Shown piece by piece: positions 3,793 through 52,613 of a DNA stretch of 64,000 nucleotides. The notes under the pieces are model-generated. The model was not told the origin of the DNA. It did no database searches and saw nothing but the letters and a program-made list of their open reading frames with translations. Location of the stretch: assembly GCA_963708025.1 (NCBI GenBank), contig CAVPSB010000002.1, positions 1 through 64,000 on the forward strand, in the 5' to 3' direction. Position 1 is the stretch's first letter. Every line of letters starts with the position of its first letter. Source of the DNA: an uncultured Candidatus Rokubacteria bacterium (GTDB taxonomy: Bacteria > Methylomirabilota > Methylomirabilia > Rokubacteriales > DASRDR01). The translations under genes were made by a program, and so were the position numbers.

Positions 3793-4211
<419 letters not shown>

Positions 4212-4974: not shown

Positions 4975-5050
4975 TGGTGGGCCCACCTGGACTCGAACCA
5001 GGAACCAACCGGTTATGAGCCGGTGGCTCTGCCAGTTGAGCTATGGGCCC
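4975..5050 (-). tRNA. tRNA with CAT anticodon, most likely tRNA-Ile2 (lysidine)
   Basis: GGGCCCATAGCTCAACTGGCAGAGCCACCGGCTCATAACCGG...GTTCGAGTCCAGGTGGGCCCACCA; lies downstream of rpoD like E. coli ileX. Confidence 0.92.
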
Positions 5051-17957: not shown

Positions 17958-18032
17958 TGGCTGGGGCGGGAGGATTCGAACCTCCGAATACGGGATCCAA
18001 AGTCCCGCGCCTTACCGCTTGGCCACGCCCCA
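17958..18032 (-). tRNA. tRNA-Gln(TTG)
   Basis: TGGGGCGTGGCCAAGCGGTAAGGCGCGGGACTTTGGATCCCGTATTCGGAGGTTCGAATCCTCCCGCCCCAGCCA. Confidence 0.97.
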
Positions 18033-51251: not shown

Positions 51252-51620
51252 ATGACGTTCATCCGCGAGGTCGGCGACGACGAGCTCCGGCGCGAGAAGG
51301 CGAAGGCGCGCGAGCTGCGCCAGAGCCCGTGGTGGAAGCGACGGCTGGCCGCCGGGCGGTGCGCCTACTGCGACCGGCCGACCCCTTCGCGCGAGCTGAC
51401 GATGGACCACCGCGTCCCCCTCGTGCGGGGCGGCCGCTCGACGAAGGGCAACGTGGTGCCGGCCTGCAAGGCGTGCAACACGGCCAAGAAGTACCTCTTG
51501 CCGATCGAGTGGGAGGCGTACATCGCGCGGCTTGCCGACCCGGCGGAGTCGGAGGAGCACCCGCCGTCATTGCCCGTGCGAAAAGAATTGGACAAGCGAG
51601 CGGAGCCGGATTTAGGATGA
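51252..51620 (+). CDS. Small HNH endonuclease
   Basis: CAYC...LTMDHRVPLVRGG...NVVPACKACN. Confidence 0.9.
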   Translation: MTFIREVGDDELRREKAKARELRQSPWWKRRLAAGRCAYCDRPTPSRELTMDHRVPLVRGGRSTKGNVVPACKACNTAKKYLLPIEWEAYIARLADPAESEEHPPSLPVRKELDKRAEPDLG

Positions 51621-51748
51621 GACAAATCGATCGGGGGTCACACAGCCCCCTGGCGCGCCGATCCTGGCAGTGGAGCCGGGCGGGGCGGATCGAGCCGCGG
51701 GCCGGGAGTCGGCGGCCGGCCGGCGGTGGCGGGATCGTGGGCCCGCGT

Positions 51749-51975
51749 GGTGCGTGCGCCGAGAAAGGAGGTGGTCCAGCCGTGTGTACAACCCCGGTGA
51801 TTTTCTGTGAGGTGGTGACCTCCTAGGTCGCGCGCACCCGGTTCCATCTGAGGGTGGCCCGCCTGGGAGGATCCCCAGGCACCACCGGCCCCGAGGGTCC
51901 TGCACTTCACCTGCAGGGCGGCCCGAGCCTCCGACAGCGAGGTGGGTCGCAGACGCCCTCGGGGCTCCCTTTTTG
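51749..51975 (+). ncRNA. Candidate structured RNA containing a 14-codon micro-ORF (51782-51826)
   Basis: Three GC-rich stem domains ending in TTTTT; extended 16S-complementary SD AGAAAGGAGGTGGTCCAGCCG. Confidence 0.55.
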
Positions 51976-52057
51976 CGGAGATCCCGGTCCCGGATCCTGG
52001 GAACTCACGCCCGCCGGCTTCTGGCAATCCTCTGACTCTGGCCGCCCTGGCGTTCCA

Positions 52058-52131
52058 CTTCGAGCCGCGGCTTCGCCGCGGCCTGCGCGGGGGGGCCTCG
52101 GGGTCTTCCCAGACCCCCCCGAAGATCCTAG
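52058..52131 (-). repeat. Dispersed repeat family 2, copy 1
   Basis: Reverse complement CTAG...TTCGGGGGGGTCTGGGAAGACCCCGAGGCCCCCC...CGCGGCGAAGCCGCGGCTCGAAG; matches 63744-63820. Confidence 0.7.
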
Positions 52132-52613
52132 TTGAGCATTCCGACCAGGCGGTGGAGCTCGGCGCGGGCGGGGCGGTAGTCGGGTTCGATGTCGAGAGCC
52201 TGCCGCAGCTCGGCGATCGCCTCGTGGACCTTGCCCTGCTTGGCGTAGACGCGGGCCAGGTTCACGTGTGGGTAGTGGCGCGGCTCGTAGCGGGAGGCGG
52301 CCATCGCCTTCTGGAGCCAGGGGATGGCGTCCTGGTGGCGGCCGAGCTTGATGAGATAGGAGCCGATGTCGTTGTAGGGGTTGCCGAAGTCCGGATCGAT
52401 ACGGATCGCGGTGCAGCACTCGCGGATCGCCGCCTCGAGATCGCCGTTGAAGCTGTAGGTCCAGCCGAGGAAGGTGTGGGCCTCGGCGGTCGGCAGGCAC
52501 TCGATGGACTTCCGGTAACCGGCGATCGCGCTCTCGAGGTCCCCTCTCATCTGGGCCTCGTACGCCGCCTCGAAGTACCGCTGGGCCTGGTCGCGCGCGC
52601 TCGCCTCGTCCAT
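52128..52613 (-). CDS. TPR-repeat protein
   Basis: AEAHTFLGW, DPDFGNPYNDIGSYL. Confidence 0.88.
   Translation of the reverse strand: MDEASARDQAQRYFEAAYEAQMRGDLESAIAGYRKSIECLPTAEAHTFLGWTYSFNGDLEAAIRECCTAIRIDPDFGNPYNDIGSYLIKLGRHQDAIPWLQKAMAASRYEPRHYPHVNLARVYAKQGKVHEAIAELRQALDIEPDYRPARAELHRLVGMLN

Follow-up and report, generated by a model that had tools for sequence, protein, structure and literature searches.

A candidate long-form relative of the Ms_IGR-5 small RNA in Rokubacteria, with a long Shine-Dalgarno sequence ahead of a predicted mini-ORF

We analyzed a 64,000-nucleotide (nt) stretch of DNA from an uncultured Candidatus Rokubacteria bacterium (assembly GCA_963708025.1, contig CAVPSB010000002.1, positions 1 to 64,000), hereafter the window, and focused on a small-RNA gene that occupies a 510-nt gap between an open reading frame (ORF) with an HNH domain (51252-51620, +) and a convergent ORF for a TPR protein (52128-52613, -). 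An earlier note had singled out two abutting blocks at this locus as antisense to two separate regions of 16S ribosomal RNA (rRNA), and had proposed an RNA that may clamp the 30S subunit or precursor 16S rRNA (pre-16S), for sequestration, hibernation, or the guiding of maturation. In the reading that we favor, and hold to be reasonably probable, the first block serves as ribosome-binding site for a translated mini-ORF, and both belong to a structured small RNA with its own promoter and terminator stem, a long form of the Rfam family Ms_IGR-5. The locus comprises the following features.

51589..51618, plus strand: promoter-like site TGGACA - 18 nt - TAGGAT, from a promoter scan, with conserved hexamers
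~51625..51965, plus strand: the whole small-RNA gene, a putative long-form relative of Rfam Ms_IGR-5; ends placed from the promoter and the T-run
51623..51766, plus strand: 5' domain specific to the long form, with several covarying hairpins (helices 1-6); model R2
51633-51650, plus strand: P1 hairpin within the 5' domain
51762..51784, plus strand: extended Shine-Dalgarno (SD) sequence (block 1), with GGAGG at 51767-51771, from complementarity to the 16S 3' end
51782..51826, plus strand: mini-ORF from GTG to TAG, 14 codons, predicted peptide MCTTPVIFCEVVTS; its first 10 nt are block 2
51811..51816, plus strand: 5' strand of the long-range helix (helix 8), GGTGGT, in ORF codons 10-12
51861..51880, plus strand: hairpin GCCTGGG / CCCAGGC with a purine-rich loop (helix 10)
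51881..51886, plus strand: 3' strand of the long-range helix, ACCACC, directly 5' of the terminator stem
51887..51964, plus strand: branched terminator-like stem GGCCCCGAGGG ... CCCTCGGGGCT with two inner hairpins (helices 11-13) and a T-run at 51960-51964

The promoter scan returned a single site, at 51589-51618, where 50 shuffles gave an expectation of 0.0. In the alignment of relatives, the -35 and -10 hexamers, a body of ~340 nt, and a G+C-rich stem followed by a T-run were all conserved. A simple terminator scan at the 3' end of the gene found 0 sites because the stem is branched. The segment 51700-52010 was conserved, with a DNA identity of 71-93%, in 38 of 41 related genomes, a tally that counts the source genome (G000) and the unpublished G038, and in 27 of 27 high-quality genomes; the full-length match occurred once per relative. 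Models R1 (51753-51913) and R2 (51623-51766) likewise each gave a single match in the window's own genome. Contigs from four RNA libraries of three studies, which attest presence in such libraries and are no proof of transcription, ends, or levels, spanned 51656-51969; several were identical to the window, and two connected the 5' domain with the SD region. Altogether, 13 runs labeled as RNA held part of the stretch. None of the RNA-library contigs placed on the locus covered 51450-51655 or 51970-52200, which is not evidence of transcript ends. Separately, sequencing-adapter letters are joined to the end of one contig (run X2) at 51656, and a contig from a second run in that study (X1) begins at 51657; this boundary may mark a fragment end or processing downstream of the first hairpin, or may be an artifact.

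We then aligned the locus to the genome's own 16S genes, which lie on contigs other than that of the window, and both blocks matched their antisense strand. Block 1, AGAAAGGAGGTGGTCCAGCCG (51762-51782), paired with the 16S 3' end (locus L001) at 20 of 21 positions, just as the earlier note had proposed from the common bacterial sequence; the one mismatch, G51774, faces an rRNA U and so forms a wobble, and none of 200 shuffles reproduced the match. Counting G.U pairs, the contiguous complementarity to the 16S 3' end extended over 23 nt in the window. In its order, 27 distinct sequences reached 17-23 nt; elsewhere, 10 further non-actinobacterial sequences reached 17-24 nt and 58 actinobacterial ones 15-21 nt, with a mode of 17. 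The claim that the match is far longer than a normal SD was thus borne out by a conserved stretch of 15-24 contiguous nt in all 95 distinct homologues. Among 29 aligned long forms, GGAGGTGRTCCA was invariant. Beyond it, the sequence differs between phyla, and the CCG by which the window extends block 1 is common only to its own order.

Block 2, GTGTGTACAA (51782-51791), likewise matches the antisense of the genome's own 16S without a mismatch, at a point 127 nt away from block 1 in ribosomal DNA (rDNA); 0 of 200 shuffles gave such a match. Block 2 spells the GTG start codon plus codons 2-4. At the same offset in 107 homologous loci, the block was exact in one (the window), had one mismatch in five and two mismatches in one, and had at least three mismatches in 100; homologues that keep block 1 have therefore lost GTGTGTACAA. 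In the phylum sample, the only common element was ATG or GTG followed by TGT, and the next codon varied at all three positions. Past block 1, the window showed no excess of antisense match to 16S, as 98% of shuffles scored equally well, and the CCCCGG that had been read as a further complement found no convincing partner there. Because block 1 is beyond chance and conserved and block 2 is not conserved, the bipartite reading that brought in the ~1390 region of 16S is unsupported, even though the second match itself is real in this genome.

The mini-ORF explains the position of block 1 in other terms. In the window, GGAGG is followed after 10 nt by the GTG at 51782, from which a frame of 14 codons runs to TAG (51824-51826); together with the match to the genome's own 16S tail, the sequence has the predicted makeup of an SD-led initiation site. 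We compared the frame across the window, 29 relatives, and loci that a two-block pattern had retrieved from species genomes, of which 77 of 80 were kept; three (L045, L049, and L064) were set aside as chance matches, having no ORF and an R1 score of 11 bits in one and none in two. All 89 distinct cores had an in-frame start (ATG 27, GTG 27, TTG 35) 7-13 nt past GGAGG and a stop exactly six codons past the TGT codon (TAG 74, TGA 9, TAA 6); complete ORFs appeared in 0 of 89 and 11 of 89 cores in the control frames. The distance from GGAGG to the start was 10-12 nt in most homologues, no homologue had C as the first letter of the start codon, and insertions and deletions in the order-level alignment came in multiples of three. 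Four members found without the pattern (R1, same class) kept the SD, a GTG start, the frame, and the stop distance. The in-frame start and fixed-distance stop after block 1 therefore argue for a translation-initiation site and not a pure clamp, and we read block 1, from its sequence, as the SD region of the mini-ORF. The earlier proposal was right in seeing an RNA here and not a coding-region accident; as a pure clamp, it sits poorly with a start and stop kept in 89 of 89 cores.

A pure antisense clamp or guide on the 3' end of mature 30S or pre-16S, which would sequester subunits or hold the 3' minor domain with the ORF incidental or serving release, is in our estimate unlikely. The 15-24 nt of contiguous complementarity in all 95 distinct homologues speaks for it, and model R1 even detects the antisense of the 16S 3' end. 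Further encouragement comes from family f2 of the same order and from two loci of other phyla (L103 and L076), where the antisense match runs past block 1. In locus L040 (1508-1661, genome G040), 17 + 12 nt are identical to the antisense of its own 16S (L168), separated by 4 versus 3 nt, and cover both strands of the last 16S hairpin. In L040, L103, and L076, the antisense region reaches from the SD to codon 6, with the start codon opposite the unmatched 3-4 nt, and the second block of L040, CCTACGG and longer, recurs in L103 and L076. However, the extension was significant in only 6 of 78 distinct sequences and was absent from the window, from its family, and from all 47 actinobacterial sequences. 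A clamp also needs no conservation of start, frame, and stop while codon identities change, and pairing with the hairpin requires an unfolded 16S end. The extension may be left over from an ancestral antisense rDNA fragment, may result from gene conversion, or may reflect genuine pairing with unfolded 16S, and it keeps the clamp or guide idea alive at low probability.

A related version, rather unlikely in our view, is that the RNA, abundant and present as a single copy in several phyla, captures 30S subunits or unfinished 16S 3' ends by its 15-24 nt of antisense, with the mini-ORF acting as a release or reset and the 5' domain of the long form as a sensor that sets when the site opens. Here the sister-family match, 33 of ~37 nt over both strands of the last 16S hairpin, is the supporting observation. 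If this version were true, the RNA would do for the ribosome what 6S RNA does for RNA polymerase, or be the first trans-acting antisense partner of pre-rRNA in bacteria.

Next, we examined the fold. The alignment held 29 long forms, from the window's order and from records titled Thermodesulfobacteriota, Nitrospiria, Binatia, Methylomirabilota, and 'delta proteobacterium'. On these, RNAalifold gave 67 pairs with 94.8% of cells paired; compensatory changes on both sides occurred in 39 of the 67 pairs, a number reached by 0 of 500 column shuffles, and controls with slid partners were 34-53% paired. The SD sits on a small hairpin, another hairpin spans the stop codon, and the middle of the ORF is linked with the 5' domain by a 4-bp helix. 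The 3' half of the ORF is tied to the segment before the terminator by the long-range helix, in which GGTGGT (51811-51816) pairs with ACCACC (51881-51886). The homologous helix in 58 actinobacterial sequences has 10 pairs, with 94.1% of cells paired and five pairs changed on both sides, and in short forms it joins GGTGATTG to CAATCGCC. A naive best-partner search for the ORF strand was too noisy in this GC-rich sequence (shuffled mean 6.9 bp), and positional counts were used instead. Helix 10 (GCCTGGG/CCCAGGC) contributed seven pairs with 96.5% of cells paired, and helices 11-13 of the terminator stem contributed 12 + 3 + 4 pairs, of which 13 showed compensatory changes. At the stop codon, most long forms have in addition a CCTCCT that pairs with the SD in the single-sequence fold; this could keep the SD hidden until it is opened by a ribosome or by something that acts on the 5' domain. 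A possible pseudoknot, in which GGAC (short forms) or GGTGA (long forms) in the ORF complements the loop of the first inner terminator hairpin (GTCC or TCACC), is unproven because both sides hardly vary.

The covarying long-range helix bears on whether the peptide matters. That the RNA is no more than a short structured mRNA, working through a peptide of 12-16 residues, strikes us as improbable. In its favor, the ORF is universally kept, almost every member retains Cys-Glu-Val, and a second Cys occurs at position 2 in many long forms. Against this, residues 2-4 and the last three residues vary freely among homologues, and variable codons showed no third-position excess (mean entropies 1.04/1.01/1.30, 0.93/1.01/0.48, and 0.95/1.11/1.09). 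The Glu-Val codons are themselves the 5' strand of the covarying helix, and the residues that follow change together with the pairing partner. The Cys codon is replaced by Gly in G138 and G172, two of the four genomes whose members were found without the pattern, and no modifying or partner gene is conserved alongside. Because third positions show no excess and Cys gives way to Gly in two genomes, we reason that the peptide is not selected; selection probably keeps the start, frame, and stop and not the amino-acid sequence, so that translation itself would matter. We infer that the act of translation is what has been preserved, and that engaging the ribosome is the business of the RNA. A search of the literature with peptide strings of the mini-ORF returned no relevant mention. 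As an aside, a contig titled 'uncultured Gammaproteobacteria' (L112) has a copy of mycobacterial type (peptide MVDLWTCEVAAS) and may be mis-binned.

To place the RNA in a family, we aligned the Rfam model for Ms_IGR-5 (RF02471), which matched 51757-51974 end to end (model positions 1-184) at 20.6 bits (E 0.018), below its gathering cut-off of 45 bits. Four of four actinobacterial pattern loci tested passed the cut-off (61.8-175.8 bits), and eight non-actinobacterial loci failed it. Model R1, made from long forms only, found one locus each in G042, G047, G138, and G172, without the exact pattern, and these four same-class short forms passed the RF02471 cut-off at 54.4-62.6 bits; an R1 search of G081 gave no match. 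R1 also matched every one of 24 actinobacterial loci end to end (19-38 bits); these had been fetched with the 21-nt pattern that the model shares. Because short forms found by a long-form model pass RF02471, the window is linked to the Ms_IGR-5 family. It shares with that family a strong SD followed by a 12-16-codon ORF ending in ...(C/G)-E-V-x-x-x-stop, the long-range helix from the 3' half of the ORF to the pre-terminator segment, a terminator stem of similar sequence, and a stand-alone arrangement with one copy per genome. It differs in its host phylum outside Actinobacteria, in its longer complementarity to 16S (23 nt versus a mode of 17), in the internal CCTCCT that most long forms have at the stop codon, and in an extra structured 5' domain of 144 nt, not found beside any of the short forms searched. 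On sequence grounds, the window RNA is a long-form, non-actinobacterial relative of Ms_IGR-5, and the family evidently reaches beyond its Actinobacteria label. Within the phylum, the pattern occurred exactly once in 136 of 201 genomes (a tally that counts the unpublished G038, G080, G119, and G163) and in 82 of 104 high-quality ones, with none for the reversed pattern.

The 5' domain travels with the long form. Model R2 had its single match in the window's genome at 130 bits and found the domain beside the core in eight long-form loci; we did not detect it beside the core in L076, L086, four same-class short forms, or 12 actinobacterial short forms. No Rfam family matched the domain. We rejected its identity as a reusable module or known aptamer, given the single genome match, its occurrence only beside long-form cores, and the missing Rfam family. 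The four same-class short forms (L162-L165, in G138, G047, G172, and G042) begin just before the SD, without the 5' domain, as in Actinobacteria. Beside one of them (L162), a group II intron domain match (RF00029, 41.4 bits) lies ~80 nt from the RNA gene. Phage carriage was rejected, with 0 matches in viral contigs.

The surroundings of the gene vary. An upstream HNH ORF and a convergent TPR gene were common only within the window's own family, and in other lineages the neighbors included a DEAD helicase, a class IV aminotransferase, and a PNP oxidase; comparing the flanking genes of homologous loci revealed no neighbor conserved across phyla. Several candidate ORFs in the flanks had no Pfam match and may be spurious in such GC-rich DNA. 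Although a terminator-like stem behind a short ORF is reminiscent of an attenuator, we consider a cis-acting leader of a neighboring gene very improbable: the next gene, for the TPR protein, is convergent in the window and in L018, neighbors vary by lineage, and Rfam and published transcriptomes treat actinobacterial members as stand-alone small RNAs. A degenerate rRNA fragment or an assembly chimera of rRNA reads, which the earlier note had itself raised and which two adjoining exact or near-exact antisense 16S matches might evoke, has a negligible chance of being correct, since the match is limited to 21 + 10 nt lying 127 nt apart in rDNA, the window has no small-subunit rRNA match at gathering score, and relatives keep this junction at a syntenic locus of one copy, which RNA-library contigs contain as well; together, these observations exclude a chimera.

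Two known RNAs were also considered and set aside. Transfer-messenger RNA (tmRNA) came into question because no tmRNA or SmpB was found in the assembly: ARAGORN reported 0 tmRNA genes in the genome, RF00023 gave nothing above cut-off, and no SmpB domain was found in an assembly rated 99.67% complete. A tmRNA substitute was rejected, as 12 of 21 relatives have a normal tmRNA plus this RNA, the RNA has no tRNA-like domain, and its ORF has an SD and a start. The missing tmRNA and SmpB could themselves reflect an assembly gap or a loss. An identity as 6S RNA was likewise rejected, an ordinary 6S RNA (105.5 bits) being encoded elsewhere in the genome. On the minus strand of the window, we also noted RNase P RNA (class A, 277.7 bits; 3798-4202) and two tRNA genes (4978-5050 and 17961-18032). 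Just past the RNA gene, at 52008-52130, lies one copy of a dispersed repeat of ~120 nt; BLAST returned 82 high-scoring segment pairs on 28 contigs of the genome, in both orientations and with a median identity of 81%. The repeat folds as G+C-rich hairpins and resembles repetitive extragenic palindromic elements or miniature inverted-repeat transposable elements.

Taken with the SD reading, the fold suggests how the mini-ORF might work. A 30S subunit would dock on the SD, which could pair with the whole single-stranded 16S tail and somewhat beyond. Initiation at GTG 51782 would follow, and 14 codons would be read up to TAG 51824-51826. In doing so, the ribosome would have to open the helices between the ORF and its two partners, the 5' domain and the pre-terminator segment, so that the RNA could switch between a closed fold and a ribosome-opened state. 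Possible outputs would be the sensing or buffering of free ribosomes or subunits, control of the RNA's own stability, or exposure of a trans-acting loop.

Several observations weigh against a translated mini-ORF behind an SD as the full account. An ordinary SD needs no 15-24 nt, and an SD reading accounts neither for the extra length nor for what the 144-nt 5' domain does. Partners for the SD tail also exist within the RNA itself, by positional pair counts and in the single-sequence fold, and conservation of the tail may be partly structural owing to this pairing. Most homologues were gathered with a pattern that fixes 21 nt, which inflates the apparent invariance of the SD tail and of TGTGAGGTGG. 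The single-sequence fold beats shuffles only modestly (z -1.99), the window falls short of the RF02471 cut-off, and the RNA-library contigs carry the limit given above. The L040 match, finally, covers both strands of the last 16S hairpin, and pairing into that hairpin is impossible on the mature subunit unless it is melted.

Some known systems offer partial parallels. SgrS/SgrT, RNAIII/hld, and SR1/SR1P are dual-function small RNAs that encode a conserved active peptide and base-pair with known targets. The window RNA is like them in being a small structured RNA with a short ORF, whose translation is predicted here, and is unlike them in that its peptide sequence is not conserved. 6S RNA is an abundant mimic of an open promoter that sequesters RNA polymerase and is released when used as a template. 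By analogy only, the window RNA would be another apparently abundant, housekeeping-like RNA that mimics a substrate of a core machine and that use of its short template could reset; sequestration is known for 6S RNA and is hypothetical for the window RNA. For S. aureus ribosomes, a 2026 cryo-electron microscopy study describes an SD helix extended toward the start codon, with a longer spacing from core to start (PMC13009471). The 10-nt spacing from GGAGG to the start in the window fits this geometry, whereas the S. aureus case concerns ordinary mRNAs and the complementarity here is longer, conserved over phyla, and attached to a mini-ORF in a small RNA.

Ms_IGR-5 has been listed in Rfam (RF02471) as 'Actinobacteria sRNA' since about 2013; it was first reported in M. 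smegmatis and has no function listed. Published reports describe its expression in S. lividans and S. avermitilis and its renewed detection in M. smegmatis as ncMSMEG15794c, and another places MS_IGR-5 homologues of M. abscessus and M. smegmatis among small RNAs with ribosome-protected reads (PMC4974804). In the searchable literature, the family appeared only in lists, with no non-actinobacterial member mentioned, and searches on RF02471 and on Rokubacteria non-coding RNA returned nothing relevant.

The locus thus extends the family well beyond Actinobacteria and adds a long form with a covarying 144-nt domain. What stays invariant at the core of the family has the predicted character of a module for engaging the ribosome, made up of a very long SD, a short frame with its start and stop, and helices that a translating ribosome would open. 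Kept as a single copy in different phyla, and recovered among the contigs of small libraries of soil and sediment RNA, the RNA is a candidate housekeeping RNA of translation, and with M. smegmatis and Streptomyces as culturable carriers, it is directly testable.
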